From positions 1 to 47,566 of IMG/VR virus record IMGVR_UViG_3300002098_000055: 47,566 nt of DNA. One strand, written 5' to 3'. Positions 6,915-42,037 of the stretch are shown one piece after another (the stretch's first letter is position 1; every line of letters begins with the position of its first letter). A program made the position numbers and the translations under genes. The notes under the pieces were generated by a model, which was given only the letters and a program-made list of their open reading frames with translations, was not told where the DNA came from and did not search any database. Origin of the DNA: a virus.

Positions 6915-7096
6915 TGTGCCACCCACACAGACGAGGCTGTAATATTTGTACCGTTATTAGTAAATGTCTTAACGTATGTTACGCCTTGATAGACACAGGT
7001 TATTGTTGCGACTAGCGTACCGTCATATGTGAATGTTAAGGCGAGGTCGTCAATCGGTAATTGCCCTCGGGTGCTGGTGGCTACAGTTCCGCTCAT
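6911..7096 (-). CDS. Hypothetical small protein (61 aa) at the head of the fibre array
   Basis: The ORF is coupled by ATGA overlaps to both neighbours. I recognise no motif. Confidence 0.5.
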   Translation of the reverse strand: MSGTVATSTRGQLPIDDLALTFTYDGTLVATITCVYQGVTYVKTFTNNGTNITASSVWVAQ

Positions 7097-7500
7097 TTTT
7101 TGCTCCCTTTCATAATTTGTTGGTATATCTTAGCCGCTTCAATGGGGTCGCTTACATTAATACTGATAGCGGGTTCGGTGACGTTGCAGTCAAGCTCAGG
7201 ATTGTATTTTTCAGACCATCCCGCACGGGTTTTTAAGTAAAACATAATTGCTTGGATATTGCCCGACATTGCTAGCTCATAGAGCTTTTTTGATACCCTA
7301 GCTATTGATTGGGCTTGGCCTTGGTGGAACGCTTTTCTTAGTTCAGGTTCGCGTTTTTCGGCTTTTAACCAGACCTCTTGGCTATGGCCGAAATAGTTCT
7401 GGATTAAGTATTTAGTCAGCCCAAGGCCCGCCAGCATTTTGACTTCTTTGATTTGGTCGTCGTCGACTATAAACGTGGGGGTGTTGCCATTCCTAGCCAT
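7093..7500 (-). CDS. HTH DNA-binding protein, terminase small subunit-like
   Basis: The C-terminal motif GNIQAIMFYLKTRAGWSEK resembles the ...IFWLKNR..W.DK signature common in small terminases. The N-terminus is HTH-like. Assignment is by eye only. Confidence 0.45.
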   Translation of the reverse strand: MARNGNTPTFIVDDDQIKEVKMLAGLGLTKYLIQNYFGHSQEVWLKAEKREPELRKAFHQGQAQSIARVSKKLYELAMSGNIQAIMFYLKTRAGWSEKYNPELDCNVTEPAISINVSDPIEAAKIYQQIMKGSKK

Positions 7501-9579: not shown

Positions 9580-11700
9580 GCTTCTTTTTGGTTGTTTTCC
9601 TGTTAATCTTGCGATTATCTTCCCCATTTGAGTACATTGGAAACGTGAAGGGTTTTGAAATCCTAAAGCCCTTAGTGCTTCGGTAGCTGAATAAGCTATC
9701 TTTGGCTTACTCTGCCATCCTTGCGAGAAATCAAAGAACGTATGCAGCAACTCTTCGATGGGGTTTATCTGTTCGTGGTTCCTGTTGTGTGCATTAAGTT
9801 CTGTAAACTCGTCGCTAGTCATCCATGTTTGTTCGCCTGCTGCCCATATCGCATAGACCTCCGCCCACACTTGCGCCATATCTAGCCCATGGTTGTCTTT
9901 AATCGATAATACGTGGAGCGTCCACCATCGGCGGTTTCCCGTATCGTCTACTAGAAAATTAGGGTCGTTAACTGTGGCTGCAAATACAGTACGCCGTTTT
10001 AGCACGCTATCTTTTCTTGCGTATGGCAAACGTATTTTATCAAAGTCCTCCGTTAGATAGCTTTTAATCCGGGCTATGTCAGCTTTTCTAAAAGTGCCGT
10101 CTAGCTCGCCTAGCTCCACAATCCAAAAGCTGGCTACTGTTTTAACGCAATCTTTATCCTTTGGGTCTAGGGTTGCGCCTGTTTTGACCGCTTGGCAGTC
10201 GAATGGGTCTAAAGATTTAATAAAACGTGTTTTACCGATGTTTTGGTCTCCTGCTAATACTAATACTCCGTGCGCCGAAAACCCAGTATCGGTGTGTACA
10301 GCCGCTATAGCGGATACCATCCAACGACGCATAAGTTTATAAGTTAATTCCTGATTGGTTGTTTCAAGTGTAGCTATAAATTGGTCAAGCCTAGGCACAC
10401 CATCCCAAGGTGTTTTTGTTAAACCCTCTACGATAGGGTGATAGTTTTCCCGCTGTGCTAATAAATTTAAATGGTCATCAATTCGCATGATGGGCATTTC
10501 GTTTTTCAGGGCAAGGTCTTTAATTACATTGAGCGCGAAGTTTTCCGCGTCCTCTGCAAACAGCTTGCATTTTGGGATCGTCACCTCACGGTCGCGTTTC
10601 ATGTTGTTCCATCTTGATGAAATACCAAAAATATCCAGCATAAATTTAAGGTTAGCCGATGTGTCCAGTACTTTATTGCGCGTGCTAATTTCAGGGTAGT
10701 TCATGGCGTTTAGTATTTTTGTACTTAAATTGTGTTGCACATAATCTGTACTTTTGTTATTATTCACATCGGTATGTGGTGTACCGTCATGTGAAAAAAA
10801 CTTATCCCCTCGCATCCGTAAAATGGTCGAGGGGAGATAGTCTTCCCGCTGCCACTTATCTCTCTTAAGTTTTGACAGGTTCATTAGTTCTTGAACCCGC
10901 TCACAATTACCGCCTACCAGATAATGCAATCTGTATGCTAGTGCCGCATCTGCTGCGCTGTGGTCGTATTCTTTGCCGGGTGTTTGTGTTGGGAAATGTT
11001 GGGCTAGTACATTGGAATTATTCTCCCATAGGTGCCGAATTGAAAGCACACTACCGAACGCTTCTTTTTCACTTAATGGCTTACTTAAAAACCACTCAAT
11101 TAGCTTCACGTTATCTTCAGGCGGGTTTGTGCCCGGTGCGGCTTCTGTCGTCCATTCTGCTGAACGTTCGGTTCGAGGGGTAGTATCTATCCCAAGGGCT
11201 GCAATAAACTGCTTAAGCCCTTCTGTGTGGATAGTTTCCGCATCTCCTCGTGGGTTTATCTCAGCTAATGCGCAAAAGCGCCCAGCGGTGTAAATTTCGA
11301 TGCCCAGATGGTCTAGTCGGCGGCCATCGAAGGGCGCATCGCCTTCAAATCTCGCGATTATATGCAGCCCCCTACCAGACTGAGAGGTCTCAACGTATGC
11401 CGTGGGGAAATAAGTAAGAGTATTTGTAGCTGTTTCTGTGAGTGTACCGTCTGGATTAATGCACCTGTCCAGGTCGATAAAAAAATAATTATCTCCCTCG
11501 AGTACTGCATAGCCTACGCCATAGCCCTCACCGAGCGTATCTGCTAACGCTCGAGCCGTTTCGTAGGGCATATGGATTAAAGGGTCTAATGGGTTGTGGG
11601 TGTATAAGTTTTTTGGGTCCAACGGTATTTTATCCGTCTTTCCTTTAGACGTAGGTACGTAACGACACAATAGGTATCTATTAAGTTGTGGTTTTTTCAT
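9511..11700 (-). CDS. Bifunctional DNA primase-polymerase (AEP) / VirE-D5-type helicase
   Basis: AEP motifs are FFIDLDRC (DxD) and SGRGLHII. The P-loop LAGDQNIGKT lies in a VirE-like C-terminal half. Confidence 0.85.
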   Translation of the reverse strand: MKKPQLNRYLLCRYVPTSKGKTDKIPLDPKNLYTHNPLDPLIHMPYETARALADTLGEGYGVGYAVLEGDNYFFIDLDRCINPDGTLTETATNTLTYFPTAYVETSQSGRGLHIIARFEGDAPFDGRRLDHLGIEIYTAGRFCALAEINPRGDAETIHTEGLKQFIAALGIDTTPRTERSAEWTTEAAPGTNPPEDNVKLIEWFLSKPLSEKEAFGSVLSIRHLWENNSNVLAQHFPTQTPGKEYDHSAADAALAYRLHYLVGGNCERVQELMNLSKLKRDKWQREDYLPSTILRMRGDKFFSHDGTPHTDVNNNKSTDYVQHNLSTKILNAMNYPEISTRNKVLDTSANLKFMLDIFGISSRWNNMKRDREVTIPKCKLFAEDAENFALNVIKDLALKNEMPIMRIDDHLNLLAQRENYHPIVEGLTKTPWDGVPRLDQFIATLETTNQELTYKLMRRWMVSAIAAVHTDTGFSAHGVLVLAGDQNIGKTRFIKSLDPFDCQAVKTGATLDPKDKDCVKTVASFWIVELGELDGTFRKADIARIKSYLTEDFDKIRLPYARKDSVLKRRTVFAATVNDPNFLVDDTGNRRWWTLHVLSIKDNHGLDMAQVWAEVYAIWAAGEQTWMTSDEFTELNAHNRNHEQINPIEELLHTFFDFSQGWQSKPKIAYSATEALRALGFQNPSRFQCTQMGKIIARLTGKQPKRSSAGNIHHLVPKSGVSNKTPVVG

Positions 11701-11715: not shown

Positions 11716-12036
11716 TTAGTTTGTTAAATATTTAACTACCTTCTGTTTAAGCTCCTGCGGTAGTTGAACGGTTTCTTTTCCCCATGTTGCTAAATTTTCG
11801 GCTAGTATTGGTATAATCTCCTTTTCTATTGCGGTTGCTAAAACAATCGCGCGTAGGTTTTCGATGCTGTCGTAATAATGATTTATTAAACCACTGGCGC
11901 ACTGCATCCTATTTGCTATGGCCCGACGGGTCAACTGTCGGTAGCCTCGTTCGATGGATAAATTGATAGCAATATCAAGTATTTGCTCTTTTCGAGCGAG
12001 GGGGTTCATCCTCGCACCTTTAATTCTGATTGTCAT
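11716..12036 (-). CDS. Minimal TetR-family-like HTH regulator (106 aa; alternative start 12009)
   Basis: RKEQILDIAINLSIERGYRQLTRRAIANRMQCASGLINHYYDSIENL matches the TetR_N pattern (..ILDAA..LF.E.GY..TT...IA..AGVS.G.IYHYF.SKE.L). The protein is too short for a ligand-binding domain. Confidence 0.65.
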   Translation of the reverse strand: MTIRIKGARMNPLARKEQILDIAINLSIERGYRQLTRRAIANRMQCASGLINHYYDSIENLRAIVLATAIEKEIIPILAENLATWGKETVQLPQELKQKVVKYLTN

Positions 12037-12591: not shown

Positions 12592-14207
12592 ATCATATTG
12601 TCCATGCTGTCAACAACCTTTGAATATAACACTGAAGCCTCAGAACTGCCAAGGGCTTGCGCACTTAAGATATCTATGTTAAAGGCGAGATAAAAACGTC
12701 GGTAGATTTCAGAATCACTTTCGCCTGTGTGCTTATAGTATCCCGCCCACTGAGCGATAGCCGCACGCAGCTCTGTTTGTATCCTGATTTTCTCAGCGTG
12801 CCGGTTTTGTATGCCACGTATTACATACGGCTCAACCCCGCGCGGGTATTTTGGCGCGTCTGTTACGTTGCGCTCAGCGTTGCCTCGCAGTGCGGCGAGC
12901 GTTTCCGCGTCGAGTTCGCATAGGTCGCCGTCTACGAATTGTGGGGCGTTGCGCTGCTGTGGTTCGTGGTAATGCCCGCAGTACGGACACTCACGTAGAA
13001 ATCGGGTAAATACGCTCAGGCATTTTAAACACGTTTTAAGCGGGATTGCGTCTTCAGGCGTTGACCGTCCGCGCCGTTCGCGTGCGTCAAGTGACCAGTT
13101 GCGTGGCGCATCGGGGAGGCCGTGGCGTGCGTAGTTGTTCACATGGTCAATAATAACGGCGTGTTGTTTGTTGTCTGAAGGTCTTAGAGCGCGTCCGAAC
13201 TGTTGGGCGAACGTGGCGTAACTCTCTGTAGGTCTGCCCATCGAAACGACTTCAATTGCTGGCACGTCTACGCCCTCGCCGAGTATATCAACGTTAACAA
13301 GCTGTAACAGTTCGCCTGCCCGAAACCGTCGCATGGCTTGCTGCCTGAGAAGCGGGGGCGTTAGGCTGCTTACGACTTCGGCGGGTACGCCGTGTTGGCG
13401 GAATTCAAGGCAGATTTCGTGCGCGGCTTTGATGTCTACCGCGAACGTCACGCCACGTTTGCCGGGCGCTATACGCAGGTAGTGCGCAACGATATCGCCT
13501 GTAATTCGTGATTTATGTACCGCAGTGCGTAGCGGGACGGGAGAGAAATCGCCGCTTGCTGTGTGTCCGACACCGGATAAATCTAGGTCGTTTGGGGGTG
13601 CGAAGATACGATAGTCACAGAGATAACCCCGCTGGATTAGCTCACGCATTGACGGCCCGGTTATCAGTACGTCGGCTAGCCCGTCACTGTGCCTACCAAG
13701 CCCGCGCCCGTCTGCGCGTACAGGTGTTGCGGTTGGGAAGAATCCGCGAGCGTTGGGGAACAGTTGGCACGCTCGTCCCCACAGATTTTTAGCTTGGATA
13801 TGATGCGATTCGTCAATTATTTGTACAGTTACGCGTTTGAACCACGGGGTATCCGCTGGCATACGTGTGAGAGTTTGAACCGAAGCGACAAAACACGTCG
13901 CATTGGGGTCATAAAATCCGCGTTGGTGGGCGATATGATGTGTGGCTACAATCTCGCGTACTGTAGAGCGCGGGGCGATAATATTATGCCGTATGCCGAA
14001 ACCTGCTAGTGTGAGTGAGAGCTGGGATACAAGTTCGGTACGATGCGCTATAACCACAGAATACCCGGTGTGCTGCTGTATGAGCGAGGTTATAATTAGG
14101 CTCTTGCCTCCGCCTGTACTGAGCTGGCCGAGAACGTTCACGTGTCCAGCGTTCCACGCCTCGAGCGTTTGTTGTACCATGTCCCGCTGATAATCCCTGA
14201 GCTGCAT
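12588..14207 (-). CDS. Superfamily 2 DNA helicase (DEAD/DEAH, res-subunit-like) with C-terminal zinc ribbon
   Basis: Walker A is LSTGGGKS and DExH is IIDESHH. The C-terminal ribbon is CLKC...CPYCGH. Confidence 0.85.
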   Translation of the reverse strand: MQLRDYQRDMVQQTLEAWNAGHVNVLGQLSTGGGKSLIITSLIQQHTGYSVVIAHRTELVSQLSLTLAGFGIRHNIIAPRSTVREIVATHHIAHQRGFYDPNATCFVASVQTLTRMPADTPWFKRVTVQIIDESHHIQAKNLWGRACQLFPNARGFFPTATPVRADGRGLGRHSDGLADVLITGPSMRELIQRGYLCDYRIFAPPNDLDLSGVGHTASGDFSPVPLRTAVHKSRITGDIVAHYLRIAPGKRGVTFAVDIKAAHEICLEFRQHGVPAEVVSSLTPPLLRQQAMRRFRAGELLQLVNVDILGEGVDVPAIEVVSMGRPTESYATFAQQFGRALRPSDNKQHAVIIDHVNNYARHGLPDAPRNWSLDARERRGRSTPEDAIPLKTCLKCLSVFTRFLRECPYCGHYHEPQQRNAPQFVDGDLCELDAETLAALRGNAERNVTDAPKYPRGVEPYVIRGIQNRHAEKIRIQTELRAAIAQWAGYYKHTGESDSEIYRRFYLAFNIDILSAQALGSSEASVLYSKVVDSMDNMI

Positions 14208-14227
14208 AAGTTATTTATTTGTTGTTG

Positions 14228-14258
14228 TTGACAGGGTAGTCAATATATATCTATACTC
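14228..14258 (+). promoter_or_regulatory. Rightward early promoter P1 with operator palindrome TTGACAGGGTAGTCAA
   Basis: The -35 TTGACA lies inside the 16-bp palindrome at 14228-14243. The -10 is less clear: CTATAC at 17 nt or TATACT at 19 nt. Confidence 0.55.
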
Positions 14259-14270
14259 CGTTTTTGTCAA
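14242..14270 (-). promoter_or_regulatory. Leftward early promoter (TTGACA-17 nt-TATATT)
   Basis: The -35 is at 14270-14265 and the -10 at 14247-14242, on the minus strand upstream of the helicase gene. The -10 abuts or overlaps the 14228-14243 palindrome. Confidence 0.6.
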
Positions 14271-14285
14271 TTTAAAGAGGCTACA

Positions 14286-15026
14286 ATGATAAAATTAGAA
14301 ATCACAGATTTAGAAACTGCAAGCGAGGACGTGTTACGCGAGACAGGCCGGTATTTGTTAGCGTTGAGTAACAGAGCGCACGTTGAACTTGAGCCGGTTG
14401 AGTTAGAGGGTTTACGTGTCGGGTCCCCTGCTTCTGCGGCTGAACCTGAGCCGGTTGAACCTGACACGTCAAAGGAGCCTCACGCTTACTTTGTTTTTCC
14501 TCCTGAACCTGTGCTCATTGATATACCCCAAGCCCCTGCGCCTGTTGTAGATATTGTGCCTATGCCCTCTGAGATATTCAGTAAACCGGCTCCCGCTCCC
14601 ATCCCGCCAGCACAAGTAACGCCCGCACCCAGTGTTGACTTAGACGTACATGGCATGCCATGGGATATACGCATACACGCACGCACAAAAACAAAAATGA
14701 AAGACGGTTCATGGAAAAAACTACGAGGTGTAGGCCCGCTCGTTGTTAAAACCGTTGAAGCGCAGTTACTTACTATTCAGAACATTCCAGCACCCCCGGC
14801 TGTGCCACCCGCGCCAGAAGCACCTGCTGAAGCTGTAGCCCCCGGGTTTAGCGATTTAATGACACTAGTCACAAAAGCAATTACTGAAGGTAAGTTAAAA
14901 CGCGACCAAGTTACAGCTGTTTTAAAGCCGTTTGGTATACCGTCTTTACCGCTGATTGCTACGCGCCTTGATTTGATTCCGGCTGTTATTGAAGCCCTGA
15001 CGGAGATAGTTAATGCTCCATTCTAA
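14286..15026 (+). CDS. Hypothetical early protein with Pro/Ala-rich linkers (246 aa)
   Basis: An AAAGAGG RBS precedes it. A conserved-looking core reads DVHGMPWDIRIHARTKTKMKDGSWKKLRG. Confidence 0.7.
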   Translation: MIKLEITDLETASEDVLRETGRYLLALSNRAHVELEPVELEGLRVGSPASAAEPEPVEPDTSKEPHAYFVFPPEPVLIDIPQAPAPVVDIVPMPSEIFSKPAPAPIPPAQVTPAPSVDLDVHGMPWDIRIHARTKTKMKDGSWKKLRGVGPLVVKTVEAQLLTIQNIPAPPAVPPAPEAPAEAVAPGFSDLMTLVTKAITEGKLKRDQVTAVLKPFGIPSLPLIATRLDLIPAVIEALTEIVNAPF

Positions 15027-16101
15027 GCTTGCCCCCTCAAGTGCTGCGCGTCGTGTAGCGTGCCCCGGTAGTCGCGCTTTTGAAGAGCGGTATCCTCAAG
15101 CCGGTGATTCGCTTGCGTCCCGTGAAGGGACCGCGGCTCACTGGGTGGCACAGCAATATTTATTAGGTAATTACGCGCTACCAGCTACCGCGCCAAACGG
15201 CGAACCGATAACGAATGAAATGTTAGACGGGGCGGACATGTACGAGCACGCCGTTAAATGGAGCGGGATTGATGAAACCGCGGAATTGCATATTGAAGAA
15301 CGTGTCGAGATATTCAACGTGCACCCGGACTGCTGGGGTACGCCTGATTGCTGGGTAATCTCCGGTAAAGACTTGCATATTTTTGATTATAAGTACGGGC
15401 ATGGTTACGTTGAGGTGATTGAAAACTGGCAGTTGTTGGAATACGCCAGCGGGATAGTTGCGCGGATGCCCGACACAGATAAAATCACAATGACGATAAT
15501 CCAGCCGCGTTGCTATACCGCTAGGGGTCCGGTGAGGTCGTGGGTACTGACCCGAGAACAGCTAGCAGAGTACACCCGCGTGCTCATTAAATCTGAAGCT
15601 GCCGCAATGGACCCACACGCGCTATGCATTCCAAGCCCTCAATGCAAGCACTGCTCTGGCCGTCACGCATGTACCGCGCTGCAAAACACGGCGGGTGCGA
15701 TAGTTGATGTGGCTATGTCCGTCACGTCATACGAGTTAGACAGCCGCCAAACCGCTCAAGAGCTGCGCTACCTGCGCCACGCTGCTGCTATGATTGACGC
15801 ACGTATGACGGGGCTTGAAGAACAAGCAAAATCGATGATTACTCGCGGGGAGTACGTACCCGGATTTAAACTCGAACCGGGAAACACGCGCGAGCATTGG
15901 GCGACATCCGCGCAGGAGGTTATTGTGCTTGGCGAAATGATGGGATTAGACCTTAGGAAGCCAATAGACACAATAACACCGGCTCAAGCCCGACGGCTTG
16001 GCGTGCCTGAAGAAATTCTAGCGACCTACGCGCAACGGCTAGCGGGGAAATTAAAACTGGTCGAGTGTACAGACGATGCTAAAAAGGTATTTAAGAAATA
16101 G
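15013..16101 (+). CDS. PD-(D/E)XK exonuclease, DUF2800/Cas4-like
   Basis: The N-terminus LAPSSAARRVACPGS is DUF2800-like. It has an IFDYKYG nuclease motif and a C-terminal Cys cluster CKHCSGRHAC. Confidence 0.7.
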   Translation: MLHSKLAPSSAARRVACPGSRAFEERYPQAGDSLASREGTAAHWVAQQYLLGNYALPATAPNGEPITNEMLDGADMYEHAVKWSGIDETAELHIEERVEIFNVHPDCWGTPDCWVISGKDLHIFDYKYGHGYVEVIENWQLLEYASGIVARMPDTDKITMTIIQPRCYTARGPVRSWVLTREQLAEYTRVLIKSEAAAMDPHALCIPSPQCKHCSGRHACTALQNTAGAIVDVAMSVTSYELDSRQTAQELRYLRHAAAMIDARMTGLEEQAKSMITRGEYVPGFKLEPGNTREHWATSAQEVIVLGEMMGLDLRKPIDTITPAQARRLGVPEEILATYAQRLAGKLKLVECTDDAKKVFKK

Positions 16102-16104
16102 TTA

Positions 16105-16133
16105 TTGACTCTACAGTCAACAATTACTATAAT
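16105..16133 (+). promoter_or_regulatory. Early promoter P2 with operator palindrome TTGACTCTACAGTCAA
   Basis: TTGACT-17 nt-TATAAT (16128-16133). The palindrome is at 16105-16120. Confidence 0.7.
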
Positions 16134-16162
16134 GGATGCGTATTAACTATGGATGATTAAAA

Positions 16163-16243
16163 ATGATTGAGGAAATAATAACAGGAACGCTGTGTTTATT
16201 ATGCACGGTCGTAATGCTTTGGTTGTTTTGGGGGTTGATGTGA
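16163..16243 (+). CDS. 26-aa hydrophobic Cys-rich micropeptide (MIEEIITGTLCLLCTVVMLWLFWGLM)
   Basis: Manual translation. It is the first ORF after P2 and ends in ATGTGA. It is below the ORF-track size cutoff. Confidence 0.35.
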   Translation: MIEEIITGTLCLLCTVVMLWLFWGLM

Positions 16244-16431
16244 ATAGAATTACCGTAACGTTGTCTAAAACTATAGCTGCAATAGACGCTTCTATTATTG
16301 TTTTGCGACGTGAGCAAATAAACATTGCTAAAATTATCGCAGAAGAGATGGGATTACCTGAAGATAAGTTCTTAGCGGTTGTTAAAGAAAGTTCGATTGC
16401 AATACTTAAAAATAACGGGCTGGAGTATTAA
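16192..16431 (+). CDS. Hypothetical early protein (start uncertain; possible GTG at 16240)
   Basis: Taken from the ORF track. Its stop is immediately followed by the next ATG. Confidence 0.5.
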   Translation: MFIMHGRNALVVLGVDVNRITVTLSKTIAAIDASIIVLRREQINIAKIIAEEMGLPEDKFLAVVKESSIAILKNNGLEY

Positions 16432-16629
16432 ATGAGTACTACAGAGGATTTTGGCCACGTTGAAATACTGCAACCGAAATATAAATACCATCAGTTGCCA
16501 AAAATAGCAGATTGCAAACACAGCTGGATAGAACTCGTTACGGTATCGTATAGCCAAACTTTAGCGCTAGTGGGCTGCGATATTTGCGGAGTAACTGAGC
16601 TGGTAATACGGGAGACGGTTTATGATTGA
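16432..16629 (+). CDS. Hypothetical early protein (65 aa; C..H..C.IC cluster)
   Basis: Tight coupling to both neighbours. Confidence 0.55.
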   Translation: MSTTEDFGHVEILQPKYKYHQLPKIADCKHSWIELVTVSYSQTLALVGCDICGVTELVIRETVYD

Positions 16630-17158
16630 CTATGAAAAACTAAAAGAAGTTGATGCGTATGCTAGAAAATTGAACCATAAATATCGAGATATTCGCATAG
16701 ATTATCACTTTAGGCTTGGTTGCAGTGGGGCGTCCTATGACTATTGCAACATGACTAATGACGATTTTGAAGGTAATACCGATACTTTTGAATTTGACTC
16801 AGTAGACGATTTAATCACAAAGTTAGAAGAGCTAACCGATTCTGAGTCAAAATATAAAAAAGCGTGGTACTTAGGCCAAGACAATTCACCAAGATGGACC
16901 TATGTACACAACAAACCTTGCTATCAATTTTGTGATGTAAGCGACATCGAAGCATTGGGGAGGACTATGTACGACTCCGAGGCCTATTTGATACAGGCAC
17001 AGATAGCTTATTGGTTGAGCTTGCGAAAACCCACGCCACTTTGCGCACCGTCTACCGAAGAATGCAAGCACGAAAGCGATGGCGCTGCAACCGCTTTACT
17101 ATGCAACCCACCAATTTACCAGTACAAATGCAAGAAATGCGGAGAGTTTTACAGATGA
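16622..17158 (+). CDS. Hypothetical early protein (178 aa) with C-terminal CKKCG zinc-ribbon-like motif
   Basis: It is the longest ORF in this block and overlaps both neighbours in operon style. Confidence 0.65.
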   Translation: MIDYEKLKEVDAYARKLNHKYRDIRIDYHFRLGCSGASYDYCNMTNDDFEGNTDTFEFDSVDDLITKLEELTDSESKYKKAWYLGQDNSPRWTYVHNKPCYQFCDVSDIEALGRTMYDSEAYLIQAQIAYWLSLRKPTPLCAPSTEECKHESDGAATALLCNPPIYQYKCKKCGEFYR

Positions 17159-17340
17159 TCTCATTTAAAGATAAAGCTTTCTGCGCCAGCCCCAATTGCG
17201 TCAACGAATGCGGCAGAAAGCTAACGCCAGAACTCATGCGCGAGTATGAGCGGTTAAATATGCCTGATGAATGGGATGGAATGCTGGGCATAGCGTATGG
17301 GTATTTTTGTAATGAGCCGGAGGGTGAGGATGAGCGATGA
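17155..17340 (+). CDS. Hypothetical Cys-rich early protein (61 aa)
   Basis: ATG at 17155 overlaps the upstream TGA as ATGA. The ORF-track start at 17011 lies inside the previous gene. Confidence 0.5.
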   Translation: MISFKDKAFCASPNCVNECGRKLTPELMREYERLNMPDEWDGMLGIAYGYFCNEPEGEDER

Positions 17341-17416
17341 CGCAATAGGCACAATCTGCCAGGCTGTAATGTTTTGCACGTGCGTGATTTGTTTTACTGT
17401 GTGGCTAGTGATGTGA
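17330..17416 (+). CDS. 28-aa hydrophobic Cys-rich micropeptide (MSDDAIGTICQAVMFCTCVICFTVWLVM)
   Basis: Manual translation. It overlaps the upstream stop and ends in ATGTGA just before the next RBS. It resembles the peptide at 16163. Confidence 0.35.
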   Translation: MSDDAIGTICQAVMFCTCVICFTVWLVM

Positions 17417-17420
17417 GGGG

Positions 17421-17606
17421 ATGATGATTAAACGCATTATGTGCCTATTGCTAGGCCACAAATACGATTGCAGATGGCATAATTTTATGACTTATCATCT
17501 GAGTGCAGATGAAATTCATGTGTGCGTGGTTCGATGTACTCGATGCTTTGGCGAGCTTGAGCATTACCTGCATTATTCTGAAAATTGTGGAAAAAGAAAT
17601 GACTAA
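17421..17606 (+). CDS. Small Cys/His-rich early protein (61 aa; LGHKY ... C.RC motif)
   Basis: A GAGGGG RBS precedes it. The LGHK(W/Y)...CxRCG pattern is common in small phage zinc-ribbon proteins. Confidence 0.55.
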   Translation: MMIKRIMCLLLGHKYDCRWHNFMTYHLSADEIHVCVVRCTRCFGELEHYLHYSENCGKRND

Positions 17607-17793
17607 CAAGATAATTAAGTTTCCAGAATCACTAGACCAAGCTTTTAAACGCATAGACCGCGAGTGTGACTATCGAAAAGCACAGAATGCGTTTGAAACA
17701 AAAAGAGTTCAATGGTTTGCGTATGGTTATTTTTGTGGAATAGGGGTAACGGCTATTGTTTTTGCGTGTACATATTGGTTTTGGGGTAAATGA
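17599..17793 (+). CDS. Hypothetical protein with C-terminal transmembrane helix (64 aa)
   Basis: The internal ATG at 17599 overlaps the upstream gene by only 8 nt. The C-terminus is FAYGYFCGIGVTAIVFACTYWFWG. Confidence 0.5.
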   Translation: MTNKIIKFPESLDQAFKRIDRECDYRKAQNAFETKRVQWFAYGYFCGIGVTAIVFACTYWFWGK

Positions 17794-18014
17794 TGAATAA
17801 TTTCACGAAGAAAGAGTTAAAAAAACAACATGAGAAAAACGGTGAGTGCAAAAGCTGTGGGTGGCACGCATTTTTTTATGAAATGGATTATATGCTGACT
17901 GGAGAAATTGTAAACGATTTAAATGAGTGGTGGGGTTTCTGTAAAAGTGATAATTATACGGATGTTTCAGACCATCGAGGTTGCTTTGTTTATACAAGGG
18001 TAAATGATGAATGA
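17790..18014 (+). CDS. Hypothetical early protein (74 aa, MMNNFTKKEL...)
   Basis: ATGATGAAT start cassette with an ATGA overlap. Confidence 0.55.
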   Translation: MMNNFTKKELKKQHEKNGECKSCGWHAFFYEMDYMLTGEIVNDLNEWWGFCKSDNYTDVSDHRGCFVYTRVNDE

Positions 18015-18204
18015 TTTAAAGGATATTAAAATGGAAATAAAAATTACATATGAAAAAACGAATATTACTTGTGGGTTTGTAATAAAATTAATTTTATCTG
18101 AAGAAAATATTAATCTTGTTCCACTTGTAGACAAAGAAAATTTTTGCAAAGAATTAGATTACATATGTAAAAGTTTTGTAAGTAAGCATACGTTGGATTT
18201 ATGA
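18004..18204 (+). CDS. Hypothetical early protein (66 aa, MMNDL...)
   Basis: ATGATGAAT start cassette. Confidence 0.5.
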   Translation: MMNDLKDIKMEIKITYEKTNITCGFVIKLILSEENINLVPLVDKENFCKELDYICKSFVSKHTLDL

Positions 18205-18431
18205 TGAATGAGTTCACAAAAGAAGAGTTATATGACTTGCAAAGCTGGGGTGACGCATACACAAGTTATGACGTAGAAAGTGATGTGTACGCAATGCACG
18301 CCCCGTTGCTTAATAAAATCCAATCCCTAATTGACAACTATTGCGAGCACAAATGGATTCCGCACCGTATCGAAGATGTTATCCTTTACTGGTGCATTAA
18401 ATGCAATGCGTCCCCAAGGACTACGATATGA
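18201..18431 (+). CDS. Hypothetical early protein (76 aa, MMNEFTKEEL...)
   Basis: ATGATGAAT start cassette. The N-terminus parallels that of 17790. Confidence 0.55.
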   Translation: MMNEFTKEELYDLQSWGDAYTSYDVESDVYAMHAPLLNKIQSLIDNYCEHKWIPHRIEDVILYWCIKCNASPRTTI

Positions 18432-18586
18432 TTATAAGCGAGAAGCAAATAATGCTGTTAATTAATTACGTTAAAGACGCCAGCAAACACACGTGTTTTA
18501 ATCACACAGACTTTCAAAAGTCAATGTGTGATCTATTAAACGAAGTATACGACCAACAATCTGACGAATTAAAAAATGTGGATTGA
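18428..18586 (+). CDS. Hypothetical early protein (52 aa)
   Basis: ATGA overlap with the upstream stop. Confidence 0.45.
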   Translation: MIISEKQIMLLINYVKDASKHTCFNHTDFQKSMCDLLNEVYDQQSDELKNVD

Positions 18587-18764
18587 CATATTCCATTGTG
18601 GCTATGACGATGTGCCGACGTGGGCGCGATGTGACCGCATACAGTACGCCGCTTATCATGCCGTAGTTAAAACCTCCGACGGTCATGTAAAAGCGGAAAA
18701 AGGCGATTATATTGTGCGTCATAAAAACGGGGAGTTTGAGGTCTATAAGGGTCGGGTAAAGTAG
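18576..18764 (+). CDS. Hypothetical early protein (62 aa)
   Basis: Taken from the ORF track. It is the last gene of the P2 operon. Confidence 0.5.
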   Translation: MWIDIFHCGYDDVPTWARCDRIQYAAYHAVVKTSDGHVKAEKGDYIVRHKNGEFEVYKGRVK

Positions 18765-18955
18765 CACCCCTCCGATTTGAGTATGCAAAGCAGAGACTTA
18801 GAGGGGTTTGTTAAATACAGTATAATACCGCTAGGGTAAAATAACAACACGTTGGCCCCCACGTACACACATACGCCTGATAACCTACGCGGGGCTTGCG
18901 TTGCGCATTAAAAACTTACCCCCAAAACCTGTTAATAACTCTGTTAGTAACCTTG

Positions 18956-18984
18956 TTGACTCTATAGTCAATAACACATATAAT
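18956..18984 (+). promoter_or_regulatory. Early promoter P3 with operator palindrome TTGACTCTATAGTCAA
   Basis: TTGACT-17 nt-TATAAT (18979-18984). The palindrome is at 18956-18971. Confidence 0.7.
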
Positions 18985-19015
18985 ACTATTTTTACCAACA
19001 AAACTAAGGACAACA

Positions 19016-19864
19016 ATGAGTACAAGAATTGATTTGCTAACCCCAGTGGGCCGCTTGGTGCAAGGTAGCCTATACTCTGGCGCTACTACTGACGCGGAGA
19101 ACCGACCGCTTGTTTATAAGACTGGACCGAACCAAGGCCAACCGCGTGTAAATTTCTGGTTTAGCCTCGCTGTGCCTAAAGGTACAGAATCACACTGGAA
19201 CCAAACGGACTGGGGCAAAAAAATCTATGACGTTGGTCATGCAGGGTTTCCCCAAGGTCAAGCCAATAGCCCGCACTTTGCGTGGAAGATAATCGACGGT
19301 GATTCTAACATACCAAACACGCAAGGTAATAAACCCTGTGATAACGAAGGTTTTCCGAGCAACTGGATATTGAAGTTTTCCGGTTCGTTTGCGCCCTCAC
19401 TGTATAACGAAAACGGCACGCTTCCACTCACAGAACCGAACGCTATACAGTTAGGTGATTACATACAGGTTTATGGGTACGTTGAAGATAATAAATCCAC
19501 GCAGCAACCGGGCGTGTATTTAAACCATAGTATGATTGCACGCGCCGGATACGGTACGCGTATCATCGCAGGCGCTGACCCGAAATCTGTAGGCTTTGGC
19601 GCGGCGCCACTGCCCGCTGGTGCGAGTGCCACCCCGATAGCTGCGTTTACCCCGCCGGTTACGCAGGGCGTGCTTGCCACCCCCGCGCCCGCTGTGCCAC
19701 CTGTTGCCGCCGTGCCACCAGCTTACCCGCAAATACTAACGCCTCCCGCTCCTGTTGCTGGTCCTGTAATGACAGATAAAGCGCAAGGTGCATCATACGA
19801 GGCGTTAATCGCTGCTGGCTGGACTGACGATTTATTGGTGCAACAAGGCATGATGATTAAGTAA
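19016..19864 (+). CDS. DUF2815-like single-stranded DNA-binding protein
   Basis: It sits in the DUF2800 / DUF2815 / PolA arrangement. It has a Pro/Ala-rich linker and a short C-terminal tail. The call rests on family resemblance by eye. Confidence 0.55.
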   Translation: MSTRIDLLTPVGRLVQGSLYSGATTDAENRPLVYKTGPNQGQPRVNFWFSLAVPKGTESHWNQTDWGKKIYDVGHAGFPQGQANSPHFAWKIIDGDSNIPNTQGNKPCDNEGFPSNWILKFSGSFAPSLYNENGTLPLTEPNAIQLGDYIQVYGYVEDNKSTQQPGVYLNHSMIARAGYGTRIIAGADPKSVGFGAAPLPAGASATPIAAFTPPVTQGVLATPAPAVPPVAAVPPAYPQILTPPAPVAGPVMTDKAQGASYEALIAAGWTDDLLVQQGMMIK

Positions 19865-19872
19865 CACTGGCT

Positions 19873-19890
19873 GCCCCTTCGGGGGCTTTA
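19873..19890 (+). terminator. Rho-independent terminator-like hairpin GCCCC-TTCG-GGGGC followed by TTT
   Basis: A 5-bp GC stem with a TTCG tetraloop sits right after the stop at 19864. Confidence 0.5.
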
Positions 19891-19900
19891 AGGATTTAAA

Positions 19901-20158
19901 ATGCAAGTAGGCGTAACGTATAAAGCATCGGTTGACGAAGTCACCGGAGAAACTCAAACCGTAATGGTTTTACCCGACCAAAAGCTATTGGACTTCTTTT
20001 CTCAAAAACAAAAGTTTGATAGGGAGTGGGTACTTAACGACCCTAAGTTATCGGACGAATATAAAAGAGCATATGTGGCCGCTAATTGTGACGCGGTTTC
20101 TAATTTATTTGGACTCCTTATCCCATCATTGAGCATAAAGGATTTAAAATGCAAGTAG
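19901..20158 (+). CDS. Hypothetical protein (85 aa, MQVG...)
   Basis: An AAGGA RBS precedes it. It shares a 24-nt start cassette with the next gene. Confidence 0.6.
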   Translation: MQVGVTYKASVDEVTGETQTVMVLPDQKLLDFFSQKQKFDREWVLNDPKLSDEYKRAYVAANCDAVSNLFGLLIPSLSIKDLKCK

Positions 20159-20292
20159 GCGACAACGTAATCTATAAAGACCAAAAAGCCGAAATTAAAG
20201 AAATTAAGTGGGGCCTGTACTGCATTAGATTTATAGCCACACGTAAACATATATGGGTTACTGCTGACGCGCTTAAACGCAAGGATTTTTAA
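20149..20292 (+). CDS. Hypothetical protein (47 aa, MQVGDNVIYKDQKAEIKEIKW...)
   Basis: Manual translation, below the ORF-track cutoff. The RBS and first codons are identical to those of 19901. It ends 1 nt before the polymerase ATG. Confidence 0.45.
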   Translation: MQVGDNVIYKDQKAEIKEIKWGLYCIRFIATRKHIWVTADALKRKDF

Positions 20293-20293
20293 G

Positions 20294-22465
20294 ATGGAGT
20301 TAGACTTCGAGACCTACAGCGAAGCGGGGTTTATTTGGGACGAAAAGACACAGAAATACAAAGCACCCCCGAACGCTACACGCAAGGGCCTCCCCGTAAT
20401 CGGTGCCGCTGTGTACTCAGAGCACCCCAGCACCGAAGTTTTATCCTGTGCCTATGACCTCGGCGACGGCATTAAAAAACTGTGGAAACCGGGCGATTTA
20501 CCTCCTATAGATTTATTTCAGTATCTTGCAAACGGGGGGTTGTTCGAGGCGTGGAACGTTAAATTCGAACGTTGGATTTGGATAAACGTTTGCATGAAAA
20601 AATACGGATGGCCTGCTGTACACGAATCACAGTGGCGAGATGCGGCGGCTAAAGCTGTAGCGCACGCACTCCCTCGCTCGCTAGACCCATGCGGTACTGT
20701 CATGGACATTGCGAATAAAAAAGACAAAGACGGCATGAGGCTATTAAATAAATTCTCGATGCCACGAAATCCAACACGCGCTAATTCTAGCCGACGCATA
20801 CGACCCGAGGACGACCACGAGGACGCAGAGCGGCTATATAGCTATAACATCCGGGACATTGAGGCAGAAGCCGAACTGTCAGGACTAATACCCGATTTAA
20901 TACCTTCAGAACTTGAGTTCTGGCAGTGTGATTTAGCTATTAACGCACGGGGTATACGTGTTGATGTACCTGCTATTAAAGCGGCGATTGCTGTTGTCGA
21001 GCAGGCACACAGTAAATATAACGCACGTCTGCAAGAGTTGACAGGTCACACTGTTACTAGGGCTTCAGAGCTTGCAAAAATCAGGACGTGGTTAGAGTCA
21101 CAAGGCGTATCTGTGCCCGTATTAGATAGCGACGAGGTCACTAGACTGTTAGGCACAGATTACATAAGCGCCGAGGTACGCGAGGTTTTAGAGATACGAG
21201 AGCTACTATCTTCAGCCGCTGTTAAAAAACTATATGCAATGATTAATATGACTACCAGCGCCGGGAGGCTACATGACCTATTTATTTATCACTCTGCTAG
21301 GACTGGGCGTGCTGCGGGCGCGGGGGTACAACCTCAAAACCTTCCGAATTCGGGACCCGCGGTACAGCGGTGCGTGTGTGGCTATTATTCCCCCGTGTCA
21401 TCGATAGCATGTGTGTATTGTAACAATCCGTTCGCGCTCTCGGAAGCAGAGTGGAACACAGAAGCGGTAGACCAAGCGATAGGCACAATATTAACGGGTA
21501 ACCTTGAGTGCGTTGAGTACTACCACGGTGACGCGATAGCCACGGTTTCGGGATGTTTGCGCGGGATGTTCATACCCGACTTGGGAAAAGATTTTATATG
21601 TAGCGATTACTCAGCAATCGAAGCGGTCGTACTTGCGGCACTGGCTGGTGAAGATTGGCGGATGGACGTATTTAATACTCACGGTAAAATCTACGAAGCA
21701 TCCGCAAGCAAGCTCACCGGGAAGCCTATAGAATTCTATCTCGATTATAAAAAGTGTACAGGTCTAAACCACCCTGATAGAAAATTAGGCAAAGTTTTAG
21801 AACTCGCCCTAGGTTACGGGGGCTGGGTGGGGGCGATGAAAGCGTTCGGGGCGGATGCGTTTATGTCCGAAGATGCTATAAAACAGGCGGTATTAGCGTG
21901 GCGTGATGCCTCCCCCGCTATTGTTGAGTTTTGGGGTGGGCAGAAGCGCGGCTGGTTTCCTGATTTTTACGGCCTCGAGGGCTGCGCAGTACAGGCGATA
22001 ATGAACCCGGGCGTCGAGTTTGAATATCGGGGGTTAGTGTGGATAGTCACAAATAACATCCTCCACTGTCGTCTGCCGTCCGGGCGTTGCTTGACGTACC
22101 ACCGACCGCTGTTAAGACCTAGCGAGCGCAAGAACGGAACGTATTCTATAAGTTTTGAGGGGTGGAACAGCAACCCGAAGTATGGCGCTCCCGGGTGGGT
22201 GCGCATGGATACGTATTTTGGTCGCGTCTGCGAAAATGTGGTTCAAGCGGTAGCGAGAGACATCCTAGTGCACGCTATAGTTAATCTCGAACACGCAGGA
22301 TACCCGGTAGTTTTACACGTACACGACGAAATAGTAAGCGAGGTGCCCGAAGGATTCGGAAGTATCGAAGAATTTGAGTGTATTATGTCAACCATGCCCA
22401 CATGGGCAGCCGACTGGCCGTTGAGAGCGTCTGGTGGGTGGAGAGGAAAACGATATGGAAAATAA
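20294..22465 (+). CDS. Family A DNA polymerase with 3'-5' exonuclease domain
   Basis: Exo I is LDFETYSE. Motif A is CSDYSAIEAVVLA, motif B is RKLGKVLELALGYGG and motif C is HVHDEIV. Confidence 0.9.
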   Translation: MELDFETYSEAGFIWDEKTQKYKAPPNATRKGLPVIGAAVYSEHPSTEVLSCAYDLGDGIKKLWKPGDLPPIDLFQYLANGGLFEAWNVKFERWIWINVCMKKYGWPAVHESQWRDAAAKAVAHALPRSLDPCGTVMDIANKKDKDGMRLLNKFSMPRNPTRANSSRRIRPEDDHEDAERLYSYNIRDIEAEAELSGLIPDLIPSELEFWQCDLAINARGIRVDVPAIKAAIAVVEQAHSKYNARLQELTGHTVTRASELAKIRTWLESQGVSVPVLDSDEVTRLLGTDYISAEVREVLEIRELLSSAAVKKLYAMINMTTSAGRLHDLFIYHSARTGRAAGAGVQPQNLPNSGPAVQRCVCGYYSPVSSIACVYCNNPFALSEAEWNTEAVDQAIGTILTGNLECVEYYHGDAIATVSGCLRGMFIPDLGKDFICSDYSAIEAVVLAALAGEDWRMDVFNTHGKIYEASASKLTGKPIEFYLDYKKCTGLNHPDRKLGKVLELALGYGGWVGAMKAFGADAFMSEDAIKQAVLAWRDASPAIVEFWGGQKRGWFPDFYGLEGCAVQAIMNPGVEFEYRGLVWIVTNNILHCRLPSGRCLTYHRPLLRPSERKNGTYSISFEGWNSNPKYGAPGWVRMDTYFGRVCENVVQAVARDILVHAIVNLEHAGYPVVLHVHDEIVSEVPEGFGSIEEFECIMSTMPTWAADWPLRASGGWRGKRYGK

Positions 22466-22616
22466 TGTATTTGAGAGGATTTGCAAGGCGTTGGAAAGTA
22501 TCGCCCAGTCGTTGGGTAACATAGATAAATCAATCCAAGGTCATAACGAACACGGATTGACGACTAATATATCGTTTGAGTTAGATAGCATTAGAGCGGC
22601 AATTGAAAATAAATAG
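22455..22616 (+). CDS. Hypothetical protein (53 aa)
   Basis: The internal ATG overlaps the polymerase stop by only 11 nt. Confidence 0.4.
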   Translation: MENNVFERICKALESIAQSLGNIDKSIQGHNEHGLTTNISFELDSIRAAIENK

Positions 22617-22619
22617 TTG

Positions 22620-22648
22620 TTGACACTACAGTCAATAAGTTATATACT
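22620..22648 (+). promoter_or_regulatory. Early promoter P4 with operator palindrome TTGACACTACAGTCAA
   Basis: TTGACA-17 nt-TATACT (22643-22648). It is part of a 49-nt duplicate of 23376-23424. Confidence 0.7.
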
Positions 22649-22681
22649 CTCTTTATCAACTAAACGAAGAGAGTATATAAA

Positions 22682-22957
22682 ATGAAAAGTAAATGCGGAC
22701 GTTTTGAGTTTTTAGGTGAGATGGGTATATTTGATAGTATGTCTAAAAGATATGTGACTTTAGACGGTCAAATAGTGCAGGTAAAAGGCCAACAAGAAGT
22801 CCAGTTTTCTGAAGCTACTATAAAATTAGTAAATGAATTTATCGCCCAAGTAACACCGTATGCCGAGTCCATAGTAAAAGACAGCAAACAAGACAGGTTA
22901 AAACGCAACTTTCTACATGAGTTTAATAAAACGTTAAACGAAGGATACCATGACTAG
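22682..22957 (+). CDS. Hypothetical protein (91 aa)
   Basis: First gene after P4. Confidence 0.6.
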   Translation: MKSKCGRFEFLGEMGIFDSMSKRYVTLDGQIVQVKGQQEVQFSEATIKLVNEFIAQVTPYAESIVKDSKQDRLKRNFLHEFNKTLNEGYHD

Positions 22958-23144
22958 CATACACGAAGGCGAGACAGTATTCGAAGTAAAGTTTCAAATA
23001 AAAACTACAAAATTTTTAGGGCGGCAATCGGGATTTATGGCTAAACAGGCACACATAGAACAGTTCAACCCCACTCGTGTGTATAAAACGAAGAATGAGG
23101 CCATAGACGCCGCGGTTGATAGCATCTTAAAACTAAAGGACTAA
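22950..23144 (+). CDS. Hypothetical protein (64 aa)
   Basis: Operon-style overlap with its neighbour. Confidence 0.55.
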   Translation: MTSIHEGETVFEVKFQIKTTKFLGRQSGFMAKQAHIEQFNPTRVYKTKNEAIDAAVDSILKLKD

Positions 23145-23145
23145 A

Positions 23146-23370
23146 ATGACGCTACACGAAGAAATGCACGAATTAATAGGGAAGCATTTTAGAAATAAAA
23201 CAACGGACGTTATTGGCGTACTGCATGTTCTTACGACTCACATAACCCGGATTATCCAGTACCTCCCGCAGCCACTAGACACAAAAATAGCTATCGCAGA
23301 AGAGGTACTGGCTACAATAACAGACGAAATTATAAAAGACCCTAACCCACTGGCAAAGAGGATGAATTAA
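23146..23370 (+). CDS. Hypothetical protein (74 aa)
   Basis: It starts 1 nt after the upstream stop. Confidence 0.55.
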   Translation: MTLHEEMHELIGKHFRNKTTDVIGVLHVLTTHITRIIQYLPQPLDTKIAIAEEVLATITDEIIKDPNPLAKRMN

Positions 23371-23378
23371 TAATATTG

Positions 23379-23407
23379 TTGACACTACCGTCAATAAGTT
23401 ATATACT
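23379..23407 (+). promoter_or_regulatory. Early promoter P5 with operator TTGACACTACCGTCAA
   Basis: TTGACA-17 nt-TATACT (23402-23407). Confidence 0.65.
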
Positions 23408-23439
23408 CTCTTTATCAACTAAACAAACAGGATACGGTA

Positions 23440-23610
23440 ATGACAGAAGAACAATATTTAAAAGAAGCGCAAGTACTAGCCGATGCTTTTAGCCAAATAA
23501 CCGGAACCGAATCGATTTATGGCGTACTGGATAAAATGACAACGGGTAACCTTAGGTGCATTTATAATATCGCAAATGAAATACTACAAGAAAGAGGATG
23601 GGAAAAATGA
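23440..23610 (+). CDS. Hypothetical protein (56 aa, MTEEQYLKEAQVLADAF...)
   Basis: Manual translation. It is the first ORF after P5 and is below the ORF-track cutoff. Confidence 0.5.
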   Translation: MTEEQYLKEAQVLADAFSQITGTESIYGVLDKMTTGNLRCIYNIANEILQERGWEK

Positions 23611-23699
23611 CAACGTGGAAAATAGCAAAAGGCGTGTTCTTCGGGCAGTTAATGTTTACTGTGACTATAGCGTTATTTTACTTTTTCAGGATGTTTTAA
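23607..23699 (+). CDS. 30-aa hydrophobic micropeptide (MTTWKIAKGVFFGQLMFTVTIALFYFFRMF)
   Basis: Manual translation, with an ATGA overlap on the upstream stop. Confidence 0.3.
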   Translation: MTTWKIAKGVFFGQLMFTVTIALFYFFRMF

Positions 23700-23701
23700 A
23701 A

Positions 23702-23887
23702 ATGAGAGATGCGGCTAAGTGGTTTAATGATTTCAGTTGGTTAATGTCTGGCGGGGCGAAACAGATAGACAAATGGGCAAAAGAAGGCGTACTTGAAGAA
23801 AAAATAAAAGAACAAGAAAAGATAAACGCTGCAACAAATGGTTTTGGTCTTTTCATGAAAGAAGTTATAAACAAAAACATTGACTAA
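23702..23887 (+). CDS. Hypothetical protein (61 aa from the internal ATG; ORF-track start 23576)
   Basis: The longer version would overlap two better-coupled ORFs. Confidence 0.45.
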   Translation: MRDAAKWFNDFSWLMSGGAKQIDKWAKEGVLEEKIKEQEKINAATNGFGLFMKEVINKNID

Positions 23888-23901
23888 CCAGTGGGGATGA
23901 A

Positions 23902-24120
23902 ATGCCAAAATTATTAACGTACATCGTAGTTAAACAGCAAGTAGAATCGTTCAGACACTTAGGTTTTATGACATCGCTACAGATACAGGGGTATCACGAA
24001 GCGTTCGCGCCTAAAATTCATTTGCGAAAAGGTGCAGAAGATTATTATTTTTCTGACCCTGATTGGAACGTAGTAGTCGCTCAACTCGCCAGGCTGTACT
24101 TAAATTTGATAAACAGTTAA
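23902..24120 (+). CDS. Hypothetical protein (72 aa), last gene of the plus arm
   Basis: Taken from the ORF track. A GGGGA RBS precedes it. Confidence 0.55.
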   Translation: MPKLLTYIVVKQQVESFRHLGFMTSLQIQGYHEAFAPKIHLRKGAEDYYFSDPDWNVVVAQLARLYLNLINS

Positions 24121-41961: not shown

Positions 41962-41983
41962 AAACTCCTAGTTTTATATACGT

Positions 41984-42012
41984 ATCGTATTCCAATGATT
42001 AAAAACTTTCAA
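41984..42012 (-). promoter_or_regulatory. Candidate promoter TTGAAA-17 nt-TACGAT upstream of the scaffold/capsid genes
   Basis: Minus-strand motif in the 76-nt gap, followed by an AGGAG RBS. Confidence 0.35.
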
Positions 42013-42037
42013 TCACCCCCGCTATAAACCATCTTGC

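Follow-up and report, generated by a model that had tools for sequence, protein, structure and literature searches.

In the Tn10 TetR/tetO system, palindromic operators lie at the divergent, interleaved tetA-tetR promoters and the repressor is autoregulated, and in phage lambda, dimers of Cro and CI occupy the OR and OL operators over divergent early promoters. The RutR box of Escherichia coli, TTGACCAnnTGGTCAA, is bound by a TetR-family protein (PMC2475637), and a tetR-like gene of the PhiPLPE-group dwarf myoviruses has been listed as a co-opted 'cellular transcriptional regulator' (Comeau et al. 2012, PMC3391216). Here, we analyzed positions 1 to 47,566 of the IMG/VR virus record IMGVR_UViG_3300002098_000055 (47,566 nucleotides (nt), hereafter the window), which carries the palindrome TTGAC-N6-GTCAA in five early promoters and encodes a 106-amino-acid (aa) TetR-like protein, termed mini-TetR. 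We propose, with a probability of roughly 60%, that the five elements are sigma70 promoters with a fused 22-bp operator, and that mini-TetR would bind this operator and repress the early promoters together with its own synthesis.

The palindrome (TTGACNNNNNNGTCAA) occurs exactly five times, at 14228, 16105, 18956, 22620 and 23379, all in the plus-strand arm, compared with an average of 0.02, and never more than one, in the shuffled genome. It was also the sole over-represented palindrome in the genome when all 5-bp arms with gaps of 0–14 were scanned. An earlier description of this DNA, made from the letters alone (the sequence-only reading), had given the same five positions and had placed no copy outside the early region. 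Both claims hold: the only matches with one mismatch, at 3472, 7178 and 12598, are all within coding regions and none is among the scanned promoter-like sites, while matches with two mismatches are frequent by chance. The same reading had described a 16-bp palindrome; its TTGAC-N6-GTCAA core was correct, but the symmetry at the five sites reaches 22 bp, with 8-bp arms (TTRTTGAC-N6-GTCAAYAA). At all five promoters (P1–P5), the left arm of the palindrome serves as the -35 region and the sigma70-type consensus is matched at 11 of 12 positions. The spacer between TTGAC(A/T) and the TATAAT or TATACT box is 17 nt at four sites, as previously noted, and 18 nt, to TATACT, at 14228. Promoter orientation matches that of the downstream genes, whose ATG codons, with AGGA/GAGG-type ribosome-binding sites, lie 40–60 nt downstream. 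P4 and P5 have 55 nt in common at 95% identity and are duplicates, not independent samples. Within the window sites, a non-symmetric stretch of N6, CTAYA, is kept as well.

A whole-genome promoter scan returned nine matches of 11/12, six of which fall in early-region intergenic gaps and correspond to P1–P5 and to a sixth strong promoter, P_L, which the previous inventory had overlooked. P_L points leftward and is interleaved with P1, its -10 box and start lying inside the P1 palindrome. Because P_L is a consensus promoter without a palindrome or right arm of its own, promoter recognition as such does not require GTCAA. The offset between the two divergent -35 boxes is 42 bp in the window, in its metagenomic relatives L124 and L121, and in Acinetobacter phage Scuro.

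Placed between gene clusters, the inverted repeats could in principle be hairpins, acting as terminators of the upstream unit or as RNA elements, or could reflect chance. We give this next to no credence: the arms are 5–8 bp, AT-rich and followed by TAA/CAA, with neither a G+C-rich stem nor a T-run; none of the five sites was called terminator-like, the chance expectation is 0.02, and the sites lie upstream of the predicted starts, so they would be absent from the downstream RNA. Further candidates were rejected. Antisense use of the right arm as a -35 box fails because four of the five sites lack even a weak minus-strand -10 box at the right distance, and the fifth has a weak one. FNR sites read TTGAT-N4-ATCAA and CRP sites TGTGA-N6-TCACA; the present element, with N6 between TTGAC arms, is 2 bp wider than the former and differs in its bases from the latter. 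MerR-type promoters hold the operator inside an over-long 19–20-bp spacer and need activator-induced distortion, whereas the spacers here are the optimal 17 nt (18 at P1).

We recovered relatives through the DNA polymerase and through 42 close homologs of the TetR-like protein, and built a conservation profile from 12 distinct internal promoters of the clade's metagenomic relatives. In this profile, the left arm carries 1.6, 2.0 and 1.3 bits over its outer TTg and 2.0, 2.0, 1.6, 2.0 and 1.3 bits over TTGAC, and the right arm carries 1.6, 2.0, 1.3, 2.0 and 2.0 bits over GTCAA and 1.0, 2.0 and 1.6 bits over the outer yAA. N6 carries 0.1–1.2 bits, the rest of the spacer 0.2–0.6 bits, and the -10 box 1.0–2.0 bits with four of its six positions invariant. 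The right arm is constrained as strongly as both promoter hexamers, and the profile is mirror-symmetric. Constraint also covers the three bases preceding the -35 hexamer, which sigma70 does not contact in a sequence-specific manner. This pattern of conservation indicates that the 22-bp symmetry is under selection.

Divergent relatives point in the same direction. L143 has an internal promoter with TTTAC-N6-GTAAA, a compensatory variant in which both arms are changed and the symmetry is kept, and its P1 also has GTAAA; the recognition helix of its TetR-like protein reads CTAPLISHYY versus CASGLINHYY. In L121, whose polymerase is 65% identical, the TTGAC palindrome is missing and two promoters carry ATCTTG-N10-CAAGAT, again 22 bp, with the -35 TTG at positions 4–6 and the dyad centre as in the window but different outer bases; the helix-turn-helix of its TetR-like protein has diverged. 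L124 (79% identical) keeps seven of the eight arm positions at two internal promoters and five of eight at P1, with N6 rewritten. Half-sites thus co-vary with symmetry kept in L143 and L121, and at positions 6 and 11 in Scuro, Klebsiella phage JD001 and Shewanella phage SppYZU01, although the independent events are few and no convincing simple rule connecting recognition-helix residues to half-site bases was found across the phages.

These profiles also bear on the idea that the right arm is a promoter-intrinsic spacer that sets how well host RNA polymerase, perhaps modified by a phage factor, recognises the promoter or how strong the promoter is, and that its recurrence partly reflects promoter duplication. 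The recent duplication of P4 and P5 would fit this idea, as would the conservation of some non-symmetric positions (CTAYA in the window) and the long non-palindromic stretch, TTAAGAAATA, that the Scuro sites have in common. However, P_L and its orthologs are consensus promoters lacking the right arm, relatives keep the arm but vary freely in N6 and the remaining spacer, the mirror-symmetric profile reaches upstream of the -35 hexamer beyond what sigma70 contacts explain, and the arm changes in L143 and L121 preserve symmetry. We therefore regard a purely promoter-intrinsic arm as quite unlikely.

The operator geometry recurs in distant cultured phages. A megablast search of the early arm against GenBank phages returned no match, and relatives were reached through proteins instead; the DNA polymerase is at most 52% identical to those of SppYZU01 and Scuro. 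Scuro, Pseudomonas phage MR14 and JD001 are enriched for promoters that combine a -35 left arm, N6, a GTCA right arm and a 17-nt spacer. Scuro contains five TGACA-N4-TGTCA sites (0.04 expected), MR14 seven TGAC-N6-GTCA sites (0.63 expected), and JD001 14 TGAC-N6-GTCA sites (0.74 expected), with ten sites of the form TGACG-N4-CGTCA (0.04 expected). SppYZU01 has two TGAC-N6-GTCA sites (0.62 expected), both TGACG-N4-CGTCA. The JD001 sites show no variation in either arm but little conservation in N4 or even in the -10 box. Positions 6 and 11 form an A:T pair in Scuro and a G:C pair in JD001 and SppYZU01. The -10 hexamers of Scuro, MR14 and JD001 are poor (TACTCT, TAGGAT and CATAGT, respectively). 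An exact-pattern scan of IMG/VR for TTGACNCTANNGTCAAT gave only scattered single matches in unrelated contigs; the contigs with two or three matches were few, and their matches are not promoters, except possibly in L114. The motif search on the genome and its relatives that the sequence-only reading had called for recovered the five window sites and either the motif or its geometry in several relatives. Together, the symmetric arm conservation, the variants of L143 and L121 and the sites of Scuro, MR14, JD001 and SppYZU01 support its argument that GTCAA, superfluous for a -35 box, would mark the site of a dimeric protein controlling all these promoters together.

Two proteins had been put forward as binders. 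The 135-aa helix-turn-helix candidate (7093-7500) was rejected as a regulator, since it matches the small-terminase family phrog_309. Mini-TetR fared better and appears to be a sound candidate: it is the sole regulator-like gene common to the window, Scuro, SppYZU01, MR14 and JD001, a homolog is present in every related phage genome searched for one, and a palindromic promoter lies directly upstream of its gene in Scuro, JD001 and MR14. By tblastn, homologs occur in at least 92 GenBank phage records, including 65 Klebsiella phage records (the jedunavirus JD001 and its relatives among them). The 106-aa protein matches Pfam PF00440 (TetR_N) at 30.2 bits, above the gathering cut-off of 24, and all of its phmmer matches in the PDB belong to the TetR family. 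An AlphaFold2 (AF2) model built from a 42-sequence alignment has a predicted local distance difference test (pLDDT) score of 80 and five helices and ends at residue 106; single-sequence input gave one long helix, with four of five models at pLDDT 44–50. Foldseek placed the AF2 model among TetR-family DNA-binding domains, with LuxR/HapR/SmcR as the best matches (root-mean-square deviation 1.9 Å over 73 residues). These structural matches span only about one third of each 170–200-aa PDB target, which indicates that the ligand-binding/dimerisation domain is lacking; this C-terminal domain (~120 residues, helices 4-9/10) was not found in mini-TetR, and all 42 close homologs are 97–106 aa long.

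In the 5' portion of the mini-TetR gene, the sequence for the conserved ILDIAIN helix contains a perfect palindrome at 11963-11978, TTGATAGCAATATCAA (TTGAT-N6-ATCAA, the L124 arm variant), which may be an internal site or may simply result from the codons used. The TetR-like protein is longer in Scuro (21424-21924) and SppYZU01 (38065-38565), with 166 aa in each, and in TPWB-08, with a reading frame of 228 aa (41944-42627). These longer proteins appear to contain two or three tandem TetR_N-like helix-turn-helix modules, and, if so, a single chain could span both half-sites without dimerising.

The proposed mechanism would run as follows. After injection, host sigma70 RNA polymerase would fire P1–P5 rightward and P_L leftward, and mini-TetR would be made from P_L together with the helicase and primase. 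A mini-TetR dimer would then occupy each operator (TTRTTGAC-N6-GTCAAYAA, with its centre at about -27.5), whose left half-site is at the same time the -35 hexamer; by covering -38 to -17, it would block sigma region 4 and turn P1–P5 down. With O1, the operator at P1, lying over the P_L -10 box and start, mini-TetR would also limit its own synthesis. The replication genes would thereby come under Cro-like negative feedback or be shut off early, with both early arms involved. We infer occlusion, repression and dimer formation from position and symmetry, repression in particular from a dyad that covers both the -35 hexamer and the P_L -10/+1. By position, the regulator's own gene falls under a site in the window, where O1 overlies P_L, and in the arrangement of Scuro, JD001 and MR14. 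Expression of mini-TetR from a promoter whose -10/+1 lies in O1 would be the usual signature of an autoregulated repressor. The earlier suggestion of a single regulator for the rightward early arm is thus borne out with respect to the shared site but was drawn too narrowly, as the P1 site also overlaps the P_L -10/+1.

Mini-TetR might also bind the same sites and activate, for example by stabilising polymerase at promoters with weak -10 boxes. The poor -10 hexamers of Scuro, MR14 and JD001 would suit such a role, and some TetR-family proteins, including LuxR/HapR, the best structural matches, both activate and repress. In the window, however, the promoters match the consensus at 11/12 with optimal spacing and should need no activator, a dyad at about -27.5 over the -35 hexamer is in a repressing position, and a site over the P_L -10/+1 can only hinder. 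Activation is, in our view, improbable.

Several observations weigh against repression by mini-TetR. The recognition helix of L124 is the same as that of the window, yet its right arms are weaker (ATCAA and GTAAA), and the P1 of L144 has N5 rather than N6 spacing. As mini-TetR has no canonical TetR dimerisation/ligand domain, a dimer would be assumed from DNA symmetry alone. The whole-genome scan revealed no separate late promoters, and repression of P_L would cut transcription into the leftward late genes, leaving late expression without explanation. Finally, the palindrome was not found in AeroV_348, Stenotrophomonas B2, PY6, TPWB-08, CKB-S1, PD0307 or PhiPLPE, all of which carry a mini-TetR homolog; the link between gene and site is therefore not one-to-one. 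Diverged operators in these phages are plausible, as L121 and AeroV_348 suggest. In the Aeromonas phage AeroV_348, promoters at ~12610-12660 and ~18292-18330 have CCCGCTACTAT in common, with GGGC...GCCC symmetry inside the spacer, an element that may be a diverged operator.

The occurrence of mini-TetR without the palindrome would also fit a real operator with a different binder, either a host TetR-type regulator of RutR-like specificity or an unrecognised small phage protein, with mini-TetR acting elsewhere. The RutR consensus matches all ten outer positions and the spacing, and many small open reading frames (ORFs) of the early arm lack a family match. The inner RutR positions (CCA/TGG), however, are not kept, and the hosts of motif-bearing phages span Klebsiella, Acinetobacter, Pseudomonas and Shewanella, which makes a single host factor unlikely. 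No further regulator-like gene is common to the motif-bearing phages, and in three lineages the mini-TetR gene lies directly behind the motif. We consider another binder unlikely and favor mini-TetR.

Table 1 Coordinates of the promoter-operator elements and associated genes in the window
Feature	Position	Strand	Description
Mini-TetR gene, 106 aa	11716..12036	-	TetR_N helix-turn-helix and two further helices, no ligand-binding domain
Operator O1 (candidate)	14225..14246	+	TTGTTGACAGGGTAGTCAATAT; overlaps P1 -35 and P_L -10/+1
Promoter P1	14228..14257	+	-35 TTGACA, 18-nt spacer, -10 TATACT
Promoter P_L	14242..14270	-	-35 TTGACA 14270..14265, 17-nt spacer, -10 TATATT 14247..14242
O2/P2	16102..16133	+	TTATTGACTCTACAGTCAACAA, then 17-nt spacer to TATAAT
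O3/P3	18953..18984	+	TTGTTGACTCTATAGTCAATAA, then 17-nt spacer to TATAAT
O4/P4	22617..22648	+	TTGTTGACACTACAGTCAATAA, then 17-nt spacer to TATACT
O5/P5	23376..23407	+	TTGTTGACACTACCGTCAATAA, then 17-nt spacer to TATACT
HNH/endonuclease VII-like gene	38121-38801	+	phrog_1035, phrog_26577; within the leftward late arm

The window represents a complete phage genome of ~47,465 bp, circularly closed or terminally redundant, as its positions 1-101 and 47466-47566 are 100% identical over 101 nt. No prophage copies were found in a scan of representative bacterial genomes, nor were lysogeny genes found. The rightward arm (14286-24120) encodes a 246-aa protein, a DUF2800/PD-(D/E)XK exonuclease, many small ORFs, a Gp2.5-like single-stranded DNA-binding protein (SSB) and a family A DNA polymerase. 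The leftward genes encode the helicase, a VRR-NUC-like nuclease, the TetR-like protein, a VapE-type primase, a ParB-methylase, the terminase, structural proteins and an endolysin; among them, the helicase, nuclease, a small ORF, mini-TetR and primase make up the P_L operon. P1 precedes the genes for the 246-aa protein (14286-15026) and the exonuclease (15013-16101), P2 a small-ORF cluster (~16160-18764), P3 the genes for SSB (19016-19864) and polymerase (20294-22465), P4 small genes at 22682-23370, and P5 small genes at 23440-24120. Among the relatives, O1 is kept in six (L137, L139, L140, L141, L142 and L145), O2/P2 is identical in three (L123, L134 and L135), and promoters orthologous to P4 occur in five (L124, L137, L139, L140 and L141). 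The element does not precede every plus-strand transcription unit, as had been stated: the HNH/endonuclease VII-like gene, probably a homing-endonuclease insertion, has no promoter-operator cassette.

Several other repeats and insertions were noted. From the P4 -10 box to the ribosome-binding site of the first gene (22643-22677) runs a 12-bp inverted repeat, TATACTCTCTTT...AAAGAGAGTATA, which folds as RNA at -13 kcal/mol (z-score -5.2). L124 and L137 retain its core, CTCTCTTT/AAAGAGAG, at their orthologous promoters, and at P5 only the left arm is present. A large part of the left arm would precede the expected start, and the repeat may act in RNA, masking the ribosome-binding site, or in DNA. 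A 29-nt direct repeat (19885-19913 and 20133-20161, 93% identical) includes a ribosome-binding site, ATG and first codons (GGATTTAAAATGCAAGTAGGCG); its copies lie at the start of an 85-aa gene between the SSB and polymerase genes and just beyond the end of that gene, and look like a gene insertion or duplication scar. A 200-nt direct repeat (27148-27347 and 27631-27830, 79% identical) within a 631-aa minus-strand gene (26756-28651) represents an internal duplication in a probable tail protein. In L121, another perfect palindrome, AATGTTTCACGTGAAACATT, occurs in four copies (9850-9902, 16114-16136 and ~16788), a tandem pair between the genes for SSB and polymerase and two more beyond the early arm; it may be the site of a second regulator or a terminator-like element. 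Inteins or homing endonucleases occur in replication genes of other relatives: the polymerase ORF of L124 (10001-13984) has 1327 aa versus 723 aa in the window, and the 1225-aa helicase of L139 (5772-9449) has Intein_splicing, Hom_end and LAGLIDADG matches.

In JD001, palindromic promoters at 4781, 9863, 15454, 16431 and 18563 lie before small plus-strand ORFs amid the minus-strand structural module, a layout suggesting that inserted accessory genes bring the cassette with them or acquire it. The spread of near-identical cassettes, seen in the duplicated P4/P5 of the window and in at least five such cassettes of JD001, raises a more speculative idea, which we hold to be rather unlikely: the element could be a portable regulatory cassette, with genes that enter these phages bringing or gaining a copy and thereby coming under one mini-TetR. 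If true, this would account for the persistence of the -35 half-site design among phages of Klebsiella, Acinetobacter, Pseudomonas and Shewanella, and effector-less mini-TetR would serve as a minimal, ligand-independent global timer and form a functional class of its own among TetR proteins.

Our analysis proposes a concrete function for a small TetR-like gene that these GenBank phage records annotate but that is uncharacterised in them, and defines an early-promoter consensus for this phage group. Using the -35 hexamer as an operator half-site is a compact design that would let one short protein gate all early promoters and its own synthesis. A ~100-aa TetR DNA-binding module without a ligand domain, paired with a 22-bp operator that doubles as a strong promoter, could moreover serve synthetic biology as a minimal part.

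We found no description of this motif or system in the literature searched. The tetR-like genes of the PhiPLPE group belong to the same small mini-TetR family, as judged by a tblastn match to PhiPLPE, which, unlike the window, lacks the palindrome. The only paper found to mention these genes assigns them no target and describes neither an operator nor a promoter motif (Comeau et al. 2012, PMC3391216). The RutR box is likewise a 16-bp palindrome with identical outer arms (TTGAC/GTCAA) and spacing, documented for a TetR-family dimer (PMC2475637), but its inner CCA/TGG is replaced here by A/T-C-T...A/C-A/C-G, so that the elements are not RutR boxes. Unlike the phage mini-TetR, RutR is full-length, uracil-responsive and host-encoded, and its sites are mostly not promoter -35 boxes. 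Resemblance to lambda Cro/CI lies in a phage helix-turn-helix protein, here a presumed dimer, with dyad operators on divergent early promoters and a self-limiting early turn-down. The fold family is a different one, however, and lambda has adjacent operator triplets, cooperative binding and a lysis-lysogeny switch, whereas the sites here are single operator-promoter units scattered along the arm of a phage for which neither lysogeny genes nor prophage relatives were found. With Tn10 TetR/tetO, the locus has in common a TetR-family helix-turn-helix and operators on interleaved divergent promoters, one of which makes the repressor. In contrast to Tn10 TetR, the phage protein is about half the size and has no ligand-binding/dimerisation domain, so no inducer is expected; in contrast to tetO, single operators are distributed, one to a promoter, over at least five promoters, and the -35 hexamer is itself a half-site. 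The principle, a promoter-overlapping operator with a self-controlling helix-turn-helix repressor and Cro-like feedback, is classical; what appears to be new is the pairing of an effector-less mini-TetR with a -35 box that serves as an operator half-site, in a design conserved across several phage genera.

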